Origin: a virus
Lineage: Duplodnaviria > Heunggongvirae > Uroviricota > Caudoviricetes
Length of the DNA: 7,478 nucleotides
IMG/VR virus record: IMGVR_UViG_2623620492_000002
Span: 1 to 7,478 of that record
Strand: one strand, 5' to 3'
The number at the start of each line of letters is the position of its first letter. The stretch's first letter is position 1. Below, piece after piece: positions 1-7,478 of the stretch. The notes beneath the pieces were generated by a model. The model had not been told where the DNA came from and ran no database searches. It saw nothing but the letters and a program-made list of their open reading frames with translations. The position numbers were made by a program, and so were the translations under genes.

Positions 1-727
1 TAATCTGTCTGACAATATCCTTGTGCCTGTACAGTTCCCGCAGCGCCGCGCAGACTCGCTCCCACTTCCGGACATGATTTTTCGCCCGACGCAGTTCGCG
101 GTTTGCCATATGCAGTGATGGTAAAACCAGGTCATCAGCTCGCGTTTCAGTAAACGATGGCAGCGAATGCACAATGTCCGCCACAGTTTCTGTTTTAATA
201 TCTTCCTGTGTTGCAGCCTCCTGTACTGGTAACGCAACACATGCAGGTTGAGGAAAGGCTTTACCATCAGTTTCCGCTACCGATGCAGCTTTCGGCTCTG
301 CTGGTAAATTATCGCCCGGCATGCAGTAACGAAATTTACCGTTCTGATTAACGCGAATCAGACGACCTTTACTGATTGCCATTGCCAGCGTTGAAGCCAC
401 TTTGCGTGATGTGGTGCCGAAAAACGTAGCCAGTTCATCCGCCGTTTGTGGTCCGCGTTGTTCAATCGTCGCGGTTAAATCGCACTCTGAGATTTTCGCT
501 ACTGTCGCCGTGGTGGTTTCTTCCGGCTGTTCTTCTGGCGCTGGCTGTTCCTGCTGAACGTTGTTATCAGCCACACGCCAGGTGTATACGCTTTTATCAA
601 CGAAGCCAGCCTTTTTCAGTTCCCACAGCTCGTTCAGTACTTCTTCACGACTGATATCAAGTCGCGCAGCCAGCTCTACCGACGTGGCTTTTCCCATCGC
701 TTTCAGTGCGTCAAAAACAGTCTCCAT
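1..727 (-). CDS. Partial CDS (3' end lies left of the window; at least 242 codons): prophage early-operon protein with a winged-helix-like N-terminus, function unknown
   Basis: Absent from the ORF track because there is no stop inside the window. ATG at 727-725 (minus) is preceded by GGGAGG with a 6-nt spacer. Translation begins [43 protein letters not shown] and stays open to position 2. It sits 32 bp downstream of the P-like gene on the same strand. Confidence 0.55.
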
Positions 728-759
728 AAATTTCCTCCCGGTAAAAATTACTTCTCAAC

Positions 760-1425
760 TCAAACAAACCCAGCCGCTTTCCGGCGTTCATATTCCTGTT
801 TCAGTAACTCAATTGGCGTTGGCCCCGACGGGCGTTTGGGTGCCGCCAGTTGTCGCCGGACTGGCGGAACGCTCAGGCCGTTACTAACATGCTTTGCCCA
901 TTTCGTCAGCTGCCGTTCTGCAAGCCGTTTTAATTCCCCTTCGGTCATCTGGCGCTCAATCCCCTTTGAACGCATCTCGAGGCAAATGTGATACAGCACA
1001 GGCTGAGACCACGGGTACTTATCACTTCCGTCGTATCGCCAGGACTCATTGCGCCAGCGGCGGTACTCCTCCATCACAGCATCCACCGTCAGACCAAATG
1101 GATTTGCCCCACTCTCCGACATCAGCGCCACAAACTCAGCCAGGTCCGGAGGCCATGTTTCACCCGCCCGGCAGCGGTCCATGCACTGGCGGCAGACCAG
1201 CCGGATTTGCTGCTCAGTCATCACGCCAATCTGTGCAATCCAGAGCTTCGAAGGTGCGGCCCCGTTCTTCTGGGTCCAGCGGTTCGAATAAGCCTCCCCC
1301 ATGAGTTCCCACAGCTTCCACGCCGTTTCCGTCGCTGATAAATCCGTTTTCACGTTCCCACTGCTCACGTGCTGCCCGAATTTCCTGAACTGACCGTGAT
1401 GCGGTGCCACCTGGTGCGGCTGCAT
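760..1425 (-). CDS. Lambda P-type replication protein (DnaB helicase-loader homolog), 221 aa
   Basis: ORF track 760..1425. The C-terminal half ([59 protein letters not shown]) matches my recollection of the lambda P C-terminal region (ESYPWKSNAHYWLVTNLYQNMRANALTDAELRRKAADELV...). ATG at 1425 has an SD-like AAGGGGGTGA about 5 nt upstream. An alternative internal start at ATG 1221 (154 aa) lies just after the O-like stop. Confidence 0.65.
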
Positions 1426-2338
1426 GGCTCACCCCCTTGCTGACTGGTTTAACCTGCGCCCTGACGTGATTTACGTGACGGGCGAATTTCTGCTCCCACT
1501 GAACCTGCGTGAACACTTTGCCCTCCGCTGCCCAGTAGTCCCGGAAGGCGGCAAGTTCAGCTGGTGTAAATTCCGGCTCAGGAAGAGCCACGCCCCACAG
1601 CGCAGCCCGTCGTCGAAAATCCGGCGACGGATGCCAGCCATCGGTCATCGGAAATTTCCCGATGGGTTCGCTCAGGCCTTCCAGGTAATCAGGTTCCGCT
1701 GTCTGCAACGGCACGCCATTTGCCTCACTGGCCGGAGCACCCTCGCGCACGCGCGCGTTATGTGTGGGGTTTATATATCTGTTATCTGTTATCTGGATAC
1801 CGCATGACAAAGCGTTAGCCTTATCCTTAGGCTTATCCTCAGGCAAAGGGATTGCCTTATCGAATGCCATCCCCAAAGCCTCAGAAACCCCGTAGGACGC
1901 GGCTCTCAGCGATTCCCTGGCCTCCCATTTGAGAGGGCAATCAGGAATTAAAGCGAATGCCTTTGCCCAGGATTTAATGACATTTATCGAGTTTGGCGGA
2001 TTGTGTTTCGCAGCATTCGGGAGCCAAAAAACTCTGGCTTTGATATCTGCTTTCACCATGCCAAGATTCATGGCTTCGCCTAAGGCTAAGTCAAAGGCTT
2101 CGATATCCCACCCCAACTCTTCAGCCATTGCTGCCCGCCCGGCTTTAAACAACCCAGGAATAATCCCGGTAAATGGACTGGTCAGCAGATAAATAAACAA
2201 ACTCTGTCCACTTGGAGGCAGAGGAGATAACGCCCTAAATTTGGGATCATCCCATATCGTTATTTTTACCTTGCGATAAGGCTCATTGTTTGCCTTAGTT
2301 TTTGGCATGGGATTTGGCATGTTTTTAGCCTTAACCAT
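1214..2338 (-). CDS. Replication initiator in the lambda O position with a DnaT-like C-terminal region; 374 aa from ATG 2338
   Basis: Track ORF 1214..2392 actually begins at a TTG (forward CAA at 2390-2392). The first ATG with a plausible SD (GAGG, 5-nt spacer) is at 2338 ([13 protein letters not shown]...). It lies directly upstream of the P-like gene, is O-sized, and has a Trp/Phe-rich C-terminal segment ([36 protein letters not shown]) reminiscent of DnaT-like domains of phage replication proteins. The last 70 codons overlap the P-like ORF in another frame. Confidence 0.6.
1769..1862. other. Candidate replication origin inside the O-like gene: AT-rich tract plus iteron-like direct repeats
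   Basis: AT-rich GTTTATATATCTGTTATCTGTTATCTGGATA (1769-1799) contains ATCTGTT/ATCTGTT/ATCTGGA tandem 7-mers (1777-1797). Adjacent repeats are TTAGCCTTATCC (1815-1826), TTAGGCTTATCC (1827-1838) and TTGCCTTATCG (1852-1862), plus the inverted repeat GGCAA-AGGGA-TTGCC (1842-1856). The cluster encodes the Pro/Lys-rich linker ([11 protein letters not shown]) of the O-like protein, as the lambda ori does in O. Confidence 0.35.
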
Positions 2339-2349
2339 AATTGCCTCAT

Positions 2350-2378
2350 CTGGTGTCGAACCTTCCTCCGGATATAAT
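2350..2378 (+). promoter_or_regulatory. Putative sigma70 promoter for the opposite-strand 151-aa ORF
   Basis: Perfect -10 hexamer TATAAT at 2373-2378; only a weak -35 candidate (TGGTGT/CTGGTG around 2350-2356). Sits 40 bp upstream of the ATG at 2418, which has a strong SD. Confidence 0.35.
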
Positions 2379-2417
2379 CTGTGATTCCCCAATCAACAGA
2401 ACCAAAGGAGGTTCGAC

Positions 2418-2873
2418 ATGTCTTTAATGGCTGTTTGCCAAAAAATTAAAAATCACATGCGCACTGTGTACAAAATTAACCAGCACGACCACGACATGGT
2501 TAACCTGGTAACATGCAGGGCTATAGTTCTCACCCGCTTCCACCTGATTCTTACAAATCACTCACGGGATTCTCTCCTGAGCCCCAGTAGCTATGATTCG
2601 CTGGCGAGATTGCTATACCAGGCAAGTGAAAAACGTATTACTGATCCCTTATCTGTTTCCCCTGTCCTTGCTCTTCACATTCTGGAAGACGCTCTCTATG
2701 ACCCCCGTCAGGAATGCGACTATCAATTTCTTGAAGCTGAGAAATCAATGAGAGAATGGTTCGTTGAATATCGCGAACGGCAGCAAAAGTTACCCTCAGA
2801 GTATTCAGAACTTCCGCAACTTCGCTGGAGTGACCTTCCGAACGAATTATTTGCTCTGACCCCAGAAAATTAA
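2418..2873 (+). CDS. Hypothetical protein, 151 aa, opposite-strand moron candidate; no recognisable family
   Basis: ORF track 2418..2873. ATG at 2418 is preceded by AGGAGG (2406-2411) with a 6-nt spacer. The 5' half is AT-richer than its neighbours and carries several rare codons (AGG, ATA, CGG, AGA, CTA). No minus-strand ORF covers 2339-2637. Product begins MSLMAVCQKIKNHMRTVYKINQHDHDMVNLVTCRAIVL. Confidence 0.5.
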   Translation: MSLMAVCQKIKNHMRTVYKINQHDHDMVNLVTCRAIVLTRFHLILTNHSRDSLLSPSSYDSLARLLYQASEKRITDPLSVSPVLALHILEDALYDPRQECDYQFLEAEKSMREWFVEYRERQQKLPSEYSELPQLRWSDLPNELFALTPEN

Positions 2874-3051
2874 TTCTTGGGGATAAATCGTCCATAACTG
2901 AGCGCAGGCTAAGTTCTGCGCTCTGAAGCTTCCGAACCGAAGTTTCTGTACCCCAACCCGCAATTTCTGCATTTTTTGCAAGTTTCAGGATCCAGTCTCG
3001 TAGTTCGCCGGGAGTAAGATTTCCGGCATTTATGTACGGTTTGATTTTCAT
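2638..3051 (-). CDS. Hypothetical protein, 137 aa; uncertain because its 3' 236 bp run antisense through the 151-aa plus-strand ORF
   Basis: ORF track 2638..3051. ATG at 3051 lies 19 bp downstream of the YdaT-like stop with only a weak SD (AGGG about 12 nt upstream). Several rare codons (GGG x3, AGG x2, ATA x2, AGA, CGA), and the 2900-2923 hairpin sits inside it. Confidence 0.3.
   Translation of the reverse strand: MKIKPYINAGNLTPGELRDWILKLAKNAEIAGWGTETSVRKLQSAELSLRSVMDDLSPRINFLGSEQIIRSEGHSSEVAEVLNTLRVTFAAVRDIQRTILSLISQLQEIDSRIPDGGHRERLPECEEQGQGKQIRDQ
2900..2923. other. GC-rich hairpin (8-bp perfect stem, 8-nt loop) 27 bp downstream of the 151-aa ORF stop
   Basis: GAGCGCAG (2900-2907), loop GCTAAGTT, CTGCGCTC (2916-2923). 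No U-tract follows on the plus strand, so it is not a canonical intrinsic terminator. Confidence 0.4.
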
Positions 3052-3070
3052 TATTGGATACCCTATTCAA

Positions 3071-3493
3071 TCAATGCACTACAACAGAATCGTCGGACGC
3101 TCCACCACCGCCGAAATGCGCTTTACGGTAAACGGCCTGGACTGCGTCATCATGCGCATCAATTGCCGTACTCAACGCTTCCTGCGCCGCCAGTAATGCA
3201 CGGCGTTCCAGGGTATCGAAGATGCAGAGTCGGTGACGCAGCTCCCGCGGAAGGATTGCCAGAATTGCTGGGATCAGCTTCTGAATTTTTTCCCTTTGCG
3301 CTTCCGTTTCACCTTTTAACCAACGGCGATAGATGTTCTGCTGATTGTTCCAGTCCTTGCCTGGTGTCAGAGACAATTCACCTCCCCCCTGGCGCAGATA
3401 TTCTTCAGTAATTGCGTTAGCGACCCACGCCTGCCCTTTTTCGGCTGCCAGGGCTAACAGCACTGATTCGATGTGCTCATGCCTGATTTTCAT
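3071..3493 (-). CDS. YdaT-like protein (CII functional-analog class of Rac-type prophages), 140 aa
   Basis: ORF track 3071..3493. ATG at 3493 is preceded by AGGAG with a 7-nt spacer and overlaps the Cro-like stop by 17 bp. Size and position directly after the Cro-like gene match YdaT; the assignment rests on position and size, not a verified alignment. Confidence 0.6.
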   Translation of the reverse strand: MKIRHEHIESVLLALAAEKGQAWVANAITEEYLRQGGGELSLTPGKDWNNQQNIYRRWLKGETEAQREKIQKLIPAILAILPRELRHRLCIFDTLERRALLAAQEALSTAIDAHDDAVQAVYRKAHFGGGGASDDSVVVH

Positions 3494-3752
3494 GAATCAA
3501 CTCCTGTGTATTTTGTGTGTTAGCCTTACATCCAACAGGTAAACCGTCGGTTGGATTCGGGTAGATATCAGGCCGGAGTTCATGAGGTGTAACCTCGAAA
3601 TTCGTAGCCTCTGCGATACGCAATACCTTTTCGGGGCTTAACTGACTACGGCCAGTAGCTACGAGGCTAATCATCGATTGCGAACAACCAGCCAGAGCGG
3701 CCAAACAAGACTGTCGTACACGATTTTTTTTCAAATATTCATCTAATGTCAT
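3477..3752 (-). CDS. Cro-like HTH regulator (YdaS/Cro class), 91 aa from ATG 3752
   Basis: Track ORF 3477..3791, but the ATG at 3752 has an SD (AAGGTGA, 5-nt spacer) while the ATG at 3791 has none. HTH-like segment QSCLAALAGCSQSMISLVATGRSQLSPEKVLRIAEAT. Divergent from the repressor gene. Confidence 0.65.
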   Translation of the reverse strand: MTLDEYLKKNRVRQSCLAALAGCSQSMISLVATGRSQLSPEKVLRIAEATNFEVTPHELRPDIYPNPTDGLPVGCKANTQNTQELIHENQA

Positions 3753-3780
3753 AAGGGTCACCTTAGTAATGCTCGCCAAA

Positions 3781-3809
3781 ATATTAACCATACTAATTTA
3801 AATGATCAA
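3781..3809 (-). promoter_or_regulatory. PR-like promoter for the cro-like operon (minus strand): -35 TTGATC, 17-bp spacer, -10 TAATAT
   Basis: Read on the minus strand: TTGATC (forward GATCAA 3804-3809), 17 nt, TAATAT (forward ATATTA 3781-3786). Predicted start near 3773 gives a leader of about 21 nt carrying the cro SD. The -35 is embedded in TGATCAATA, a motif also found at the PL-like promoter. Confidence 0.45.
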
Positions 3810-3822
3810 TACTTATATCAGT

Positions 3823-3850
3823 TTGAGATTATGAGCTGTGTTCATAAGAT
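3823..3850 (+). promoter_or_regulatory. PRM-like promoter for the repressor gene, predicting a leaderless mRNA
   Basis: -35 TTGAGA (3823-3828), 16-bp spacer, -10 TAAGAT (3845-3850); a start 7 nt downstream coincides with the A of ATG 3857. The repressor ATG has no properly spaced SD. Confidence 0.35.
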
Positions 3851-3856
3851 GGTGGT

Positions 3857-4321
3857 ATGAGAAGAAAACGCGAAGAAATCGCATCGCCAGAAGCTACGCA
3901 GCGTCTACGCGGAATCTGGGATGCAAAAAAAAGAGAGCTCAAACTGACTCAGGAGCTTGCTGCCGAGCTAATGGGCTTTGAGACACAATCTACGGTTAGC
4001 CACTATCTCAACGGAAAGGCTCCACTTAACACTGATGCGGCATTAAAATTCGCAGTATTGCTAAGAGTTAAGCCTGAAGACTTGAGGCCTGATTTAGCTG
4101 ATCTGATGAATTACGTCCGTTCCTCTGGAACTTATGACGAAAGTTTCGAAGGCGAAGGGTGGCGGATGGTTAACAAGCAACAAGCTGATTTACTGGATCT
4201 TTTTGATATCCTCCCCGAATCAGAAAAAGCAAAACTAATCGAAAGGCTTAAAGGCCAGAATGAACTCTACAAAGAAGCGTTTGAAAATATGCTGGCAGCT
4301 CAGAAACGCATGAAGAAATAG
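3857..4321 (+). CDS. Prophage repressor, cI/RacR-like XRE-family HTH protein, 154 aa, no S24 peptidase domain
   Basis: ORF track 3857..4321. HTH motif LTQELAAELMGFETQSTVSHYLNG. Divergent from the Cro-like gene and followed by an intrinsic terminator. No Ala-Gly/Ser...Lys autocleavage module is visible in the C-terminal half. Confidence 0.75.
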   Translation: MRRKREEIASPEATQRLRGIWDAKKRELKLTQELAAELMGFETQSTVSHYLNGKAPLNTDAALKFAVLLRVKPEDLRPDLADLMNYVRSSGTYDESFEGEGWRMVNKQQADLLDLFDILPESEKAKLIERLKGQNELYKEAFENMLAAQKRMKK

Positions 4322-4343
4322 CTCCCACTACCTCGTAACTAAA

Positions 4344-4366
4344 CCGCCATCCCTGGCGGTTTTTTT
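4344..4366 (+). terminator. Rho-independent terminator after the repressor gene
   Basis: CCGCCA (4344-4349), loop TCCC, TGGCGG (4354-4359), then a T7 run (4360-4366). AAA upstream could make it partly bidirectional. Confidence 0.65.
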
Positions 4367-4462
4367 ATCCCCTCCGCCCCCATCACCTTACTTTTTTATC
4401 AAAAAAAACACTAAAATTTTCATTAGGATAGTACATTTTTATCAATAAAATGCATATTTGTG

Positions 4463-4491
4463 TTGATCATCAATATGAATATAACTAATAT
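4463..4491 (+). promoter_or_regulatory. PL-like promoter for the rightward early operon: -35 TTGATC, 17-bp spacer, -10 TAATAT, overlapping a TTGAT-C-ATCAA dyad
   Basis: TTGATC at 4463-4468 and TAATAT at 4486-4491, the same hexamers and spacing as the PR-like promoter. The inverted repeat TTGATCATCAA (4463-4473) and further ATCAATA copies (4441-4447, 4469-4475) are candidate operator half-sites. Confidence 0.45.
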
Positions 4492-4557
4492 TATTACAGA
4501 AGCAGCACGGCGCTGTAGGTTTTAGTTCCGCCACCCGGCGTTAAGGGGAGAGATAAG

Positions 4558-4692
4558 ATGGTACATTACGAAGTAGTTCAGTATTTGATGGATTGTTGCG
4601 GTATCACTTACAGCCAAGCTGTACAGGCTCTACGCAGCAACGACTGGGATCTCTGGCAGGCAGAAGCCTCTATCCGCAACAACAAAATGTGA
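4558..4692 (+). CDS. Small protein, 44 aa, first gene of the PL-like operon (YdaG/YdfB size class)
   Basis: Absent from the ORF track (too short). ATG 4558 is preceded by AAGGGGAG with a 7-nt spacer; stop TGA 4690-4692. Product MVHYEVVQYLMDCCGITYSQAVQALRSNDWDLWQAEASIRNNKM. The track ORF 4593..4784 in another frame is probably spurious. Confidence 0.5.
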   Translation: MVHYEVVQYLMDCCGITYSQAVQALRSNDWDLWQAEASIRNNKM

Positions 4693-4702
4693 GGTGCGAA
4701 AA

Positions 4703-4855
4703 ATGCAAAAAATCGACCTCGGCAACAACGAATCCCTGGTGTGTGGCGTGTTCCCCAACCAGGATGGAACGTTCACCGCCATGACTTATACCAAAAGCAA
4801 GACATTCAAAACTGAAACGGGCGCACGTCGCTGGCTTGCCAGAAATACTTGCTAA
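4703..4855 (+). CDS. Small protein, 50 aa (YdaF/YdfC size class)
   Basis: Absent from the ORF track. ATG 4703 is preceded by GAGGTG with a 6-nt spacer, 10 nt after the previous stop (translationally coupled). Product MQKIDLGNNESLVCGVFPNQDGTFTAMTYTKSKTFKTETGARRWLARNTC; stop TAA 4853-4855. Confidence 0.5.
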   Translation: MQKIDLGNNESLVCGVFPNQDGTFTAMTYTKSKTFKTETGARRWLARNTC

Positions 4856-5044
4856 TCCATTATTTGGATTAATTCAATATTCTCGCTGTAGGGGTATAGC
4901 CGAGGCCACCAAAGCCCGGAGGTGGTGAAATAAAACCGGGCACAACACGAAGGCGCATTTCCGATATCCATAAAGAGTCGGTCTTGTCTGTTAAATTTAA
5001 ATGGTGGGAGTGCGCCTCCGGTTGTGAATAACAACACTGCTGTG

Positions 5045-5100
5045 TGTAGTCTTGGCGGCATCAGTTTTTTCTTGAAGTTCGACTGATGTCCGCCCTTTTT
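5045..5100 (+). ncRNA. dicF: DicF-like small RNA ending in an intrinsic terminator
   Basis: TTGGCGGCATCAGTTTT ... CTGATGTCCGCCCTTTTT: GGCGGCATCAG (5054-5064) pairs with CTGATG-T-CCGCC (5083-5094), followed by C plus T5 (5095-5100). The stem and T-tail match my recollection of E. coli DicF (GGCGGUAUCAGUUUU...GCCGCCCUUUUU). It lies in a 412-bp stretch with no credible ORF, between the small ORFs and the kil-like gene, as dicF does in Qin. The 5' end is not determinable from sequence. Confidence 0.5.
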
Positions 5101-5279
5101 AAAGTGAATTTTGTGATGCGGTGAATGCGGCTAAGCGCACGCGGAACAGTTAAAAAGCTATTGTCCTTCGTAGCAGAGTTATGGGTGAAATATCCGGCGT
5201 TAATTGTTAACTGGTTAACGTCACCTGGAGGCACCAGGCACCGCATCGACAAAATTCATTTGTAAAAATGGAGATAATT

Positions 5280-5501
5280 ATGATTGCTCATCACTTCGGA
5301 ACTGATGAAATACCACGTCAGTGTGTGACCCCTGGCGATTATGTTCTTCATGAAGGTCGGACATATATCGCCTCGGCAAACAATATTAAAAAGCGAAAAC
5401 TTTATATTCGTAACCTGACCACAAAAACATGCATTACTGACTGCATGATTAAAGTCTTCCTCGGTCGTGATGGTTTACCTGTAAAGGCGGAGTCATGGTG
5501 A
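5280..5501 (+). CDS. KilR-like small protein, 73 aa (candidate cell-division inhibitor); assigned by size and position
   Basis: Track ORF 5268..5501, but GGAGA at 5270-5274 gives a 5-nt spacer to ATG 5280, while ATG 5268 has no SD. Product [73 protein letters not shown]. Sits where Rac carries kilR, between the small ORFs and racC-recE. Confidence 0.55.
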
Positions 5502-5671
5502 TGACTAAGAAAATAAAATGTGCTTACCACCTTTGCAATAAAGAAATTGAAGAAAGCAAAAGTATTAAAAGACCACTTCATTTCATGCGTGGAGTTATCC
5601 CAACGACGGAAATGAAAAAATATTGTAGTGAAAGTTGTGCCGAAAAAGACCAGATGGCACACGAACTTTAA
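5495..5671 (+). CDS. Small Cys-rich protein, 58 aa, possible zinc ribbon (YdaE-like position)
   Basis: Absent from the ORF track. ATG 5495 (or 5501) overlaps the previous stop in ATGGTGATGA. Product [58 protein letters not shown], with C-x4-C and C-x3-C pairs. The antisense track ORF 5402..5662 is probably spurious. Confidence 0.5.
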
Positions 5672-5745
5672 TTAACTGACTATGCGAAACTGAATTTATG
5701 CCAGCAATGGCAGGGATTCGCTCAACCTTAATTAAGGAGAAAAAC

Positions 5746-6021
5746 ATGATTACCAGTTATGAAGCCACTGTTGTAACTACTGATGACATTGTTCACGAGG
5801 TTAATCTGGAAGGAAAGCGTATTGGCTACGTGATTAAAACAGAAAATAAAGAAACCCCATTCACTGTGGTTGATATCGACGGCCCATCAGGCAACGTAAA
5901 AACACTTGATGAAGGTGTCACAAAAATGAGCCTGGTTCACATCGGAAAGAATCTGCCCGCAGAAAAAAAAGCCGGATTTCTGGCAACTCTGATTGCAATG
6001 AAATTAAAAGGTGAAATCTGA
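5746..6021 (+). CDS. Small protein, 91 aa, RacC-like by size and position
   Basis: Track ORF 5698..6021, but AAGGAG at 5734-5739 gives a 6-nt spacer to ATG 5746 (MITSYEATVVTTDDIVHEVNLEGKRIGYVIK...). Immediately upstream of the recE-like gene. Confidence 0.6.
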   Translation: MITSYEATVVTTDDIVHEVNLEGKRIGYVIKTENKETPFTVVDIDGPSGNVKTLDEGVTKMSLVHIGKNLPAEKKAGFLATLIAMKLKGEI

Positions 6022-6030
6022 AAAAAGAAA

Positions 6031-6049
6031 GCCTGCATAACGTGCAGGC
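6031..6049. other. Perfect 7-bp stem hairpin between the RacC-like and RecE-like genes; looks like a minus-strand terminator
   Basis: GCCTGCA (6031-6037), loop TAACG, TGCAGGC (6043-6049). The plus strand has an A-tract upstream (AAAAAAGAAA 6021-6030) and no U-tract downstream, so the U-tract follows the hairpin only on the minus strand. Confidence 0.4.
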
Positions 6050-6119
6050 CTGAGTGAAGAACCTGGGACATTTATTCATCACTCGCAGTAATTTTAATCT
6101 GAGTTGAGGTTAAAAAACA

Positions 6120-7478
6120 ATGAGCACAAAACCACTCTTCCTGTTACGAAAAGCGAAAAAATCATCCGGTGAACCTGACGTCGTCCTGTGGGCAAGTGAC
6201 GATTTTGAATCGACCTGTGCCACTCTGGACTATCTGCTCGTTAAGTCAGGTAAAAAACTGAGCAACTATTTTAAAGCTGTTGCCACAAATTTTCCTGTTG
6301 TTAATGACCTTCCCCCTGAAGGTGAGATCGATTTTACCTGGAGTGAACGCTATCAACTCAGCAAAGACTCCATGACATGGGAACTAAAACCGGGAGCAGC
6401 GCCAGACGACGTTCACCACCAGGATAATGCTCAAGAAACCAAAGAACTGGCGGGAGGCCAGGAAGAAAACGCGCAGGCAGACGCCCACGAGGATTGCCAG
6501 GATTGCGAAGTCTCTGTAGCCACTTTGCGGTTCACACAGCGTCTTCTGCACATTTTTACGTATGCGGCCGGGGATCGGAAATACCTGCATCATGCCACCC
6601 GAGAACAACGCGAACACATTACTGCTCTTGAGATGGATCAGGAAAACAGCTATGTCCAGAATCTGCTGTTGGCCATACGCAGCATGGCAGAACCGACAAC
6701 TCTGGATAATGCCGCCCTGCTCCGCTTGACTGATGCAATTAAGGCAGTTTTCTCTATCACTAAAAAACATCAGCCCTATGAATTTAAGAATTTCATTTCA
6801 GCCTGGCTGGATACCGAACACATTGATCGCGGTCTTCTGACAAAAGAATGGCGAAAAGGGAATCGTGTTTCACGCATCACTCGCACGGCTTCCGGTGCTA
6901 ATGCTGGCGGCGGGAACCTCACAGATCGCGGCGAAGGTTTCGTCCACGATCTGACGTCACTGGCGCGCGATGTAGCCACTGGCGTACTGGCCCGTTCAAT
7001 GGACGTGGACATCTATAACCTTCATCCGGCACACGCTAAACGCATTGAGGAAATTATCGCTGAAAATAAACCACCCTTTTCTGTTTTCCGCGACAAATTC
7101 ATCACCATGCCTGGCGGGCTGGATTATTCCCGCGCCATCGTGGTTGCGTCCGTGAAAGAAGCACCAATTGGGATCGAGGTCATCCCCGCACACGTCACTG
7201 AATATCTGAACAAAGTACTGACTGAAACCGATCATGCCAACCCTGATCCGGAAATCGTGGATATTGCCTGCGGTCGCTCCTCGGCCCCGATGCCGCAGCG
7301 AGTAACAGAAGAAGGAAAACAGGACGATGAAGAAAAACCACAACCATCTGGCGCAATGGCAGATGAACAGGCAACGGCTGAAACAGTGGAACCGAATGCA
7401 ACTGCAAAATGGCATCTGAATCGATCGCAGTTTGGCATTCGAATCGATCATGATTTGGCATCCATCTCCGATCACAGT
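6120..7478 (+). CDS. recE: Exodeoxyribonuclease VIII (RecE-like), N-terminal 453 codons; CDS continues beyond the window
   Basis: Absent from the ORF track (no stop in window). ATG 6120, open in frame to 7478. N-terminus [96 protein letters not shown] and the later block [48 protein letters not shown] match my recollection of Rac RecE. All minus-strand track ORFs inside it are antisense artefacts. Confidence 0.8.

Follow-up and report, generated by a model that had tools for sequence, protein, structure and literature searches.

The kilR–ydaE gene pair of a Rac-type Escherichia coli prophage and natural proteins that join the KilR and YdaE domains in one polypeptide

The DNA analysed here is a stretch of 7,478 nucleotides (positions 1 to 7,478 of the IMG/VR virus record IMGVR_UViG_2623620492_000002, hereafter the window), which contains two small, overlapping open reading frames (ORFs) on the + strand, ORF 1 ending at 5501 and ORF 2 at 5671. 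Very probably these ORFs are the kilR–ydaE pair, already catalogued, of a Rac-type lambdoid prophage of Escherichia coli, and the identity of the individual genes as kilR and ydaE is close to certain from the similarity of their products to curated protein families. A preliminary description, made from the letters of the sequence, had taken the first product to be Kil-like and the second to be a small zinc-binding module; both guesses are right, but databases and literature already have them. The sole fresh angle is offered by natural KilR–YdaE fusions, which we did not find described in the literature searched. A cooperation between the two proteins is plausible but unproven, and the natural fusions lend it support.

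ORF 1 is matched by the family model NF008465, named 'FtsZ inhibitor protein', over positions 1–73 of 73 with a score of 163.1 bits (cut-off 92), and by phrog_294 (Kil) with an E-value of 1.6e-36. Its product is identical to K-12 KilR at 71 of 73 residues (97%), the substitutions being F51C and R55C, and RefSeq names the product of the identical DNA 'killing protein KilR'. The Kil-like assignment, which had been based on size and operon position, can now be made by homology. ORF 2 is matched by NF041288 (YdaE) over positions 1–50 of 50 with 88.6 bits (cut-off 35) and by phrog_1520 with an E-value of 1.7e-27; its homologues carry the domain PF27493, and it is 73% identical to K-12 YdaE (b4526), which has the product name 'zinc-binding protein'. 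A 551-bp stretch is 100% identical to the chromosomes of E. coli C5 and OkiPb01716. Of 5426 complete E. coli genomes, 4602 contain it, and 1807 of these cover at least 80% of it. A chance pair of ORFs is ruled out, since both products score far above the cut-offs of the curated models and the stretch is widespread in E. coli. The gene order given by RefSeq on identical DNA, i.e., a helix-turn-helix repressor, a small hypothetical protein (ydaG-like), ydaF, kilR, a YdaE family protein, a phage protein (racC-like), recE, recT, ralR, xisR and intR, is that of the K-12 Rac layout. Placement in an early-left operon, as first proposed, is thus correct, the operon being that of a Rac-type prophage in which both genes lie downstream of ydaG and ydaF.

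The kilR gene (5280–5501, + strand) encodes a protein of 73 aa. By its homology to the K-12 protein, KilR of the window is taken to block cell division that depends on FtsZ and, at a high dose, elongation that depends on MreB. K-12 KilR consists of a small β-barrel with a disordered C-terminal tail and disrupts FtsZ rings at low dose (PMC12482147). At high dose, as described in the same 2025 study, it mislocalises MreB, thereby blocking MreB-dependent elongation; the disordered tail of 12 residues is essential for toxicity in a length-dependent manner, and the action of KilR is independent of ZipA, unlike that of lambda Kil (PMC12482147). KilR inhibits FtsZ and is expressed when OxyS lowers NusG, upon which transcription reads into Rac (PMC5793797). 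The C-terminal tail of the window protein (~12 residues, with the end GLPVKAESW) is identical to that of K-12 KilR. A search of KilR against a local copy of Pfam-A gave no match at all, whether that copy includes the lambda Kil model not having been checked, and membership of the lambda-type Kil family was rejected, as KilR and lambda Kil are called unrelated in the literature. A sequence search of solved structures returned no meaningful match for KilR or YdaE, the best match of YdaE being a designed repeat protein. Some database names of kil are misleading; in NZ_CP137765.1 and PQ600364.1 it is entered as 'cell division protein FtsZ'.

The ydaE gene (5501–5671, + strand) encodes a protein of 56 aa, or of 58 aa when read from 5495. 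The C-x4-C and C-x3-C pairs pointed out in the preliminary description are indeed present, at Cys 9, 14, 44 and 48 in the 58-aa numbering; these are C7, C12, C42 and C46 in the 56-aa numbering, and they are invariant in the clean family alignments. Conservation of the four cysteines across homologues had been named in advance as a check on the proposed zinc module, and the cysteines prove to be conserved. Of the 75 family sequences with a length of 50 aa or more, 62 show the Cys4 pattern; the other 13, for the most part near-identical E. coli sequences, carry a frameshift, are truncated or chimeric, or have a single Cys mutated. The first pair has the spacing C-x4-C in the Rac clade and C-x2-C in other family members. 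The C-terminus is almost always DQMAHE-x, and the window protein ends in ...EKDQMAHEL.

The AlphaFold2 model of YdaE, based on an alignment of 23 sequences, has a mean predicted local distance difference test score (pLDDT) of 91.7 and comprises short strands, a long β-hairpin (residues 22–41) and a C-terminal helix (residues 44–55), with C7 and C12 located in a knuckle and the other pair, C42 and C46, where the helix begins. In the comparison of folds, small zinc fingers rank highest, i.e., eL24, MYND, zf-HIT, YacG, TRASH/FCS and a Pseudomonas metallothionein. The conserved cysteines, the annotation of the K-12 orthologue and the predicted zinc-finger fold agree with the small zinc-binding module that had been guessed, and YdaE is very likely a zinc finger with one Cys4 site. 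In this finger a single zinc would be held by the C-x4-C pair of the knuckle and, where the C-terminal helix begins, by the C-x3-C pair. Reportedly, the E. coli protein holds one zinc by four Cys in a GATA-like finger of the SmtA type. Passages of the citing literature name Blindauer et al. 2002 as the source for the zinc binding of K-12 YdaE.

The presence of a zinc site might suggest that YdaE functions in zinc homeostasis, as a metallothionein-like protein or zinc chaperone, or that it is a phosphatase of the Rtr1/RPAP2 type, but such roles are highly improbable. The Pfam model Rtr1/RPAP2 (PF04181) gives a borderline match of 33.3 bits against a cut-off of 33, which covers model positions 20–69 of 75 and is lacking in some close homologues, and some NCBI entries name YdaE 'Rtr1/RPAP2 family protein phosphatase', a label that is misleading. 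Rtr1-type fingers have the pattern C-x4-C...C-x3-H, in which the fourth ligand is a His, and belong to proteins of ~200 aa or more that act on the C-terminal domain of RNA polymerase II. The C-x4-C...C-x3-X spacing of YdaE is alike, but its fourth ligand is Cys46, its 56 residues cover only the finger part of the Rtr1 model with nothing beyond it, and it is encoded by a prophage of a bacterial host; the phosphatase label is therefore rejected. The bacterial metallothionein family (Metallothio_Pro, PF02069; SmtA/BmtA) is likewise rejected, as the score is 20.4 bits against a cut-off of 33, no stretch passes alone, and there are only four Cys, which make up one site. Moreover, the YdaE family is very small (46 clusters when 5.8 billion proteins are grouped at 90% identity, 42 when 1.84 billion are grouped at 50%), and it is prophage-borne and always found in early phage operons. 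YdaE has been listed as a 'putative Zn2+ chaperone', but ydaE is present in only part of the E. coli isolates and no relation to the minimum inhibitory concentration (MIC) of zinc was reported (PMC6892955).

The two genes are joined by a compact stop/start junction, which had been recognized in the preliminary description as an ORF overlap at 5495–5504; the letters at these positions (+ strand) are ATGGTGATGA. The end of kilR reads GAG TCA TGG TGA (E-S-W-stop), with the stop codon TGA at 5499–5501, and the ydaE frame has three in-frame starts inside 7 nt, i.e., ATG at 5495, GTG at 5498 and ATG at 5501. The length of the overlap, 1, 4 or 7 nt, is set by the ydaE start that is chosen. In the list of ORFs, ORF 1 extends from 5268 or 5280 to 5501 (77 or 73 aa) and ORF 2 from 5495 to 5671 (58 aa). 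In RefSeq, kilR begins at the position equivalent to 5280 and ydaE at that equivalent to 5501, which yields a protein of 56 aa and a 1-nt TGATG overlap with kilR; the stop/start arrangement in K-12 is as in the window. As read from the letters, a Shine-Dalgarno-like GGAG (5270–5273, + strand) lies 6 nt 5' of the kilR ATG at 5280, and a putative ribosome-binding tract for ydaE, AAGGCGGAG (5484–5492, + strand), lies within the 3' end of kilR. In the latter, GGAG (5489–5492) precedes the ydaE ATG at 5501 by 8 nt, and AAGG (5484–5487) precedes the ATG at 5495 by 7 nt.

A scan of IMG/VR with a KilR profile returned only near-identical Rac copies, and is useful for statistics of the junction rather than for diversity. 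The register of the junction is unchanged in 79 of the 80 contigs with near-identical kilR, and 53 of these 79 have an identical junction 18-mer. In 8 of the 79 contigs the ATG at 5501 is replaced by ACG, AAG or ATA; the upstream ATG is retained in all, followed by GTG or GTA. Because contigs that lack the ATG at 5501 keep the upstream one, the 58-aa start at 5495 is a legitimate alternative. No promoter-like or terminator-like site was found on the + strand between kilR and ydaE, and in K-12 the two genes are co-induced when control by RacR is lost or perturbed, according to published data. Judged by this geometry, kilR and ydaE are likely to be translationally coupled. As the ribosome-binding site of ydaE lies inside kilR and its starts overlap the kilR stop, ribosomes that end on kilR probably reinitiate on ydaE, such that both proteins would be made together.

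Several prophage lineages go one step further and encode the KilR and YdaE domains as one polypeptide. In-frame KilR–YdaE ORFs of 124 aa are found in genomes of Atlantibacter subterraneus, Atlantibacter sp. RC6 and Phytobacter diazotrophicus, at about 3776–4160 in loci L030, L031 and L033 and at 4001–4375 in locus L127. Intact fusions form five clusters with ~300 member sequences, which are 56–72% identical to the query fusion and all contain PF27398:KilR as well as PF27493:YdaE; a sixth cluster consists of one sequence that is frameshifted at its C-terminal end. The fusion genes are placed directly between the repressor and recE–recT, in the same slot as the pair in the window. In the 127-aa protein P0088, a kil gene of the HK225 type reads through its stop and a short spacer into ydaE, which apparently represents a second, independent fusion event. 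Because the two domains are encoded together in several lineages, YdaE may be a module for protein binding that tunes or directs KilR by acting on it or together with it, rather than a protein that handles zinc on its own. We put this forward as a tentative reading, the likelihood of which remains somewhat below even.

The YdaE domain is also found behind other partners. In some fusions its N-terminal partner is a short peptide of the Gifsy-2/PHB10 type (phrog_22279; phrog_6751 when fused, P0049–P0061), in others a larger unknown N-domain. The phrog_22279 peptide, of 38–51 aa, ends in ...LAQKG(D/N)P and overlaps the ydaE homologue by 8 nt; it is located at 2383–2499 in Gifsy-2 (L004), at 2353–2508 in PHB10 (L006) and at ~14 genome loci. 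The peptide and the C-terminus of KilR have a short L-x-x-x-G-x-P motif in common. The possibility that the phrog_22279 peptides are truncated KilR homologues was rejected, as hhalign assigned it a probability of 8.9% with a 10-column match on this motif only. A broader proposal, which we consider doubtful, is that prophage division inhibitors have in the YdaE finger a portable partner module, placed at the C-terminus, and that KilR together with YdaE makes up a cell-cycle control unit of two parts, which would be missed when kilR is expressed alone or when kilR deletions are polar. YdaE would then be made by reinitiation at the kilR stop in Rac, and elsewhere as a fusion to the KilR barrel or to the short '...LAQKGDP' peptide, and it would bind KilR or the target of KilR, setting the strength or site of KilR action.

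A number of observations weigh against a joint action of KilR and YdaE. Among phage records, a KilR-family gene is present in 150, ydaE in 15 and both in nine; about 140 of the 150 KilR-family records are thus without ydaE. Shigella phage 75/02 Stx carries recE and a kilR that is 93% identical, but no ydaE; its Kil product ends in ...ESL, and the sequence diverges right after the stop (L125, 1501–2303). In phi80, kil likewise occurs without ydaE. Phage phiSTEC1589-Stx1c has a similar operon of kil, ydaE, a gene for a 128-aa protein and recE, in which ydaE is included. In turn, the gene in front of ydaE is often an unrelated one. In 4 phage loci and 38 genome loci, a set of related prophages with near-duplicates whose counts overstate independence, the gene immediately upstream of ydaE is a separate KilR-family gene in 14 loci, KilR fused in frame to YdaE in 3, the phrog_22279 peptide in 16, a DUF1482 protein in 4, and another or an unclear gene in 5. 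The AlphaFold2 model of the fusion protein consists of two domains without predicted contact, connected by a low-confidence linker (pLDDT <50; predicted template modelling score 0.49), and is uninformative on the packing of the domains. Furthermore, when supplied by itself from plasmids, K-12 KilR is fully toxic (PMC12482147). The case for cooperation is weakened because most KilR-family genes have no adjacent ydaE and KilR by itself is toxic. On the same distribution, a toxin–antitoxin pair with KilR as toxin and YdaE as antidote was rejected.

The gene downstream of ydaE is far more constant than the gene upstream, and this bears on another explanation, in which YdaE belongs to the RecE/RecT recombination module as an accessory or host-nuclease-directed factor and the overlap with kilR is only a matter of operon packing. 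The slot of ydaE is comparable to that of lambda Gam and P22 Arf. A homologue of the RecE N-terminal part is present in 37 of 50,697 phage records, and these 37 include every one of the 15 that carry ydaE; in 36 of 39 assessable loci recE follows ydaE on the same strand at a distance of 0.15–0.9 kb, at times with a racC-like gene between, whatever the upstream gene. The observed fusions of the YdaE domain, on the other hand, are to KilR or to small N-terminal peptides and never to RecE, 22 of the RecE-carrying phage records have no ydaE, and YdaE-domain proteins of distant phages occur in early regions without recE or recT. In addition, the association is inflated by the synteny common to related lambdoid prophages. 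A role in the RecE/RecT module is a serious rival because the ydaE–recE neighbourhood is so constant, even though we consider it rather unlikely.

A comparison of the window with K-12 provides a further argument against an intimate relation of YdaE and KilR. The rate of non-synonymous substitution (dN) between the window and K-12 is 0.17 for ydaE, 0.012 for kilR and 0.019 for racC; ydaE diverges much faster than kilR, and there is not obviously any co-evolution of the two. The changes in ydaE are concentrated in the hairpin between the Cys pairs, at residues 13–41 (5540–5630), where the nucleotide identity is 67–83%. Apart from three diverged patches, the 1.5-kb alignment with K-12 is 87–100% identical. 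The ydaE hairpin is the only such patch within the coding sequences of kilR, ydaE or racC, the other two being non-coding, at 5150–5209 in the kilR leader and at 6020–6105 in the gap between racC and recE. In the hairpin patch the rate of synonymous substitution (dS) is 0.52, dN is 0.33 and dN/dS is 0.64. Positive selection on the hairpin is not proven, since dS is raised as well (0.52 vs 0.17 in the rest of ydaE); the divergence is more suggestive of a mosaic patch or of relaxed constraint.

The rapid divergence of the central hairpin may also fit an independent host-takeover protein with a host target of its own, like the zinc finger YacG that inhibits gyrase, in which case the overlap with kilR would reflect compact packing. 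The YdaE domain, with its near-invariant DQMAHE end, behaves as a portable C-terminal module on several unrelated N-terminal regions, and its fold neighbours include the protein-binding fingers YacG and human papillomavirus E7 CR3. In the literature searched no function of YdaE is reported, the only entries being hits in screens. In K-12 screens, a ydaE mutant was less susceptible to the type VI secretion system of Agrobacterium, and over-expression of ydaE led to a 3-fold higher kanamycin MIC; these phenotypes look independent of kilR. Fusion has occurred repeatedly, and specifically to the KilR domain within one and the same operon slot, which is at odds with such a self-sufficient role; we regard this role as unlikely.

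In the window, the predicted operon has the order repressor, ydaG, ydaF, KilS leader, kilR, ydaE, racC and recE, and it would be silent as long as the RacR-like repressor and Rho/NusG termination hold. A copy of the small RNA (sRNA) KilS, 97% identical to the K-12 kilS region, lies in the 5' untranslated region of kilR (5004–5101, + strand) and is given here as context only. K-12 KilS was verified by northern blot, and the paper that named it does not mention DicF (PMC8175672). The 3' part of the KilS copy (5041–5095) gives a full-length, sub-threshold match to the Rfam family DicF (RF00039; 42.8 bits against a gathering score of 48), which consists mostly of a terminator-like stem-loop, the DicF seed region not being conserved. 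Over its full length, the model of the Salmonella sRNA candidate STnc100 (RF02076) matches the kilR leader at 5097–5287 (+ strand), with a score below threshold (40.8 bits against a gathering score of 47).

Downstream of ydaE, a racC homologue of 91 aa (5746–6021, + strand) occupies the position of K-12 racC and is matched by NF007306 with 198.9 bits (cut-off 171). It is followed by the 5' part of recE (exonuclease VIII; 6120–7478, + strand), an open frame of 453 codons that runs past the end of the window, is named as such by RefSeq on identical DNA, and is homologous to RecE in 37 phage records. The ydaG homologue (4558–4692, + strand), of 44 aa, is matched by a UBA-like domain of Pfam above the gathering score (PF14555 UBA_4; 23.4 bits against 21.8). 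The sieB gene (superinfection exclusion), which in K-12 is located in the ~555 bp between ydaF and the kilR leader, is absent here, with 47 bp between the homologous blocks (4834–4881). The replication module (760–2392, − strand) differs from that of K-12 Rac, in that DnaT-like/O-type and lambda-P-type proteins replace ydaU/ydaV. Because of this different module, the prophage is a mosaic relative of Rac and not Rac itself.

Rac-type kilR–ydaE sequences were also encountered in records assigned to unrelated organisms, i.e., a metagenome-assembled genome (MAG) of Candidatus Nanosynbacter (L014), MAGs of soil 'Proteobacteria' (L010 and L013) and PP818812.1 (Actinobacillus phage vB_Apl-pPE4); the copy in L010 is more divergent than the others. 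A record of Geodermatophilus sabuli (L041) has a ydaE locus of the Enterobacter type. Contamination or mis-binning is the simplest explanation for these occurrences.

The annotation of the window is left unchanged by this analysis, as both genes are named in RefSeq and have been studied in K-12, and its residual value is modest, ydaE adjoining kilR in about one third of complete E. coli genomes. KilR is under study as a stress-tolerance factor, with regard to the OxyS–NusG–KilR checkpoint and the inhibition of both FtsZ and MreB. The natural KilR–YdaE fusions provide a concrete reason to study kilR together with ydaE, and they also raise the question whether the kilR deletions in the literature have polar effects on ydaE. 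The strict ydaE–recE neighbourhood is a second lead, for RecET recombineering.

The closest known system is formed by KilR (b1352) and YdaE (b4526) of the cryptic K-12 prophage Rac. K-12 KilR has the same operon position, the same KilS leader and the same toxicity tail as its counterpart in the window; the K-12 locus differs in the presence of sieB upstream, and the window protein in the substitutions F51C and R55C. K-12 YdaE agrees with the window protein in length, in its four Cys and in its C-terminal DQMAHEL, and its gene likewise overlaps the kilR stop by 1 nt; all 15 differences are located between residues 13 and 40, in the hairpin between the Cys pairs. Lambda Kil is similarly a small FtsZ blocker of an early-left operon, but it is unrelated in sequence, requires ZipA and causes filamentation only, whereas KilR is independent of ZipA and also rounds cells. 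On the lambda map kil lies just upstream of the recombination genes, and is followed by gam–bet–exo without ydaE. The natural fusions (P0062 and P0085–P0088; Atlantibacter, Phytobacter and related prophages) contain the same two domains in the same order as the window. They differ in forming one polypeptide of 124–127 aa with a flexible linker where the window has the stop/start overlap, in having a C-x2-C instead of a C-x4-C first Cys pair, and in a KilR domain that is only ~40% identical. As to its fold, YdaE resembles the treble-clef-like, TRASH-FCS-MYND-type fingers, such as the eL24 N-domain, YacG and the GATA-like finger of SmtA, with which it has in common the predicted topology of a zinc knuckle, a β-hairpin and a helix that carries the second pair of ligands in its first turn.

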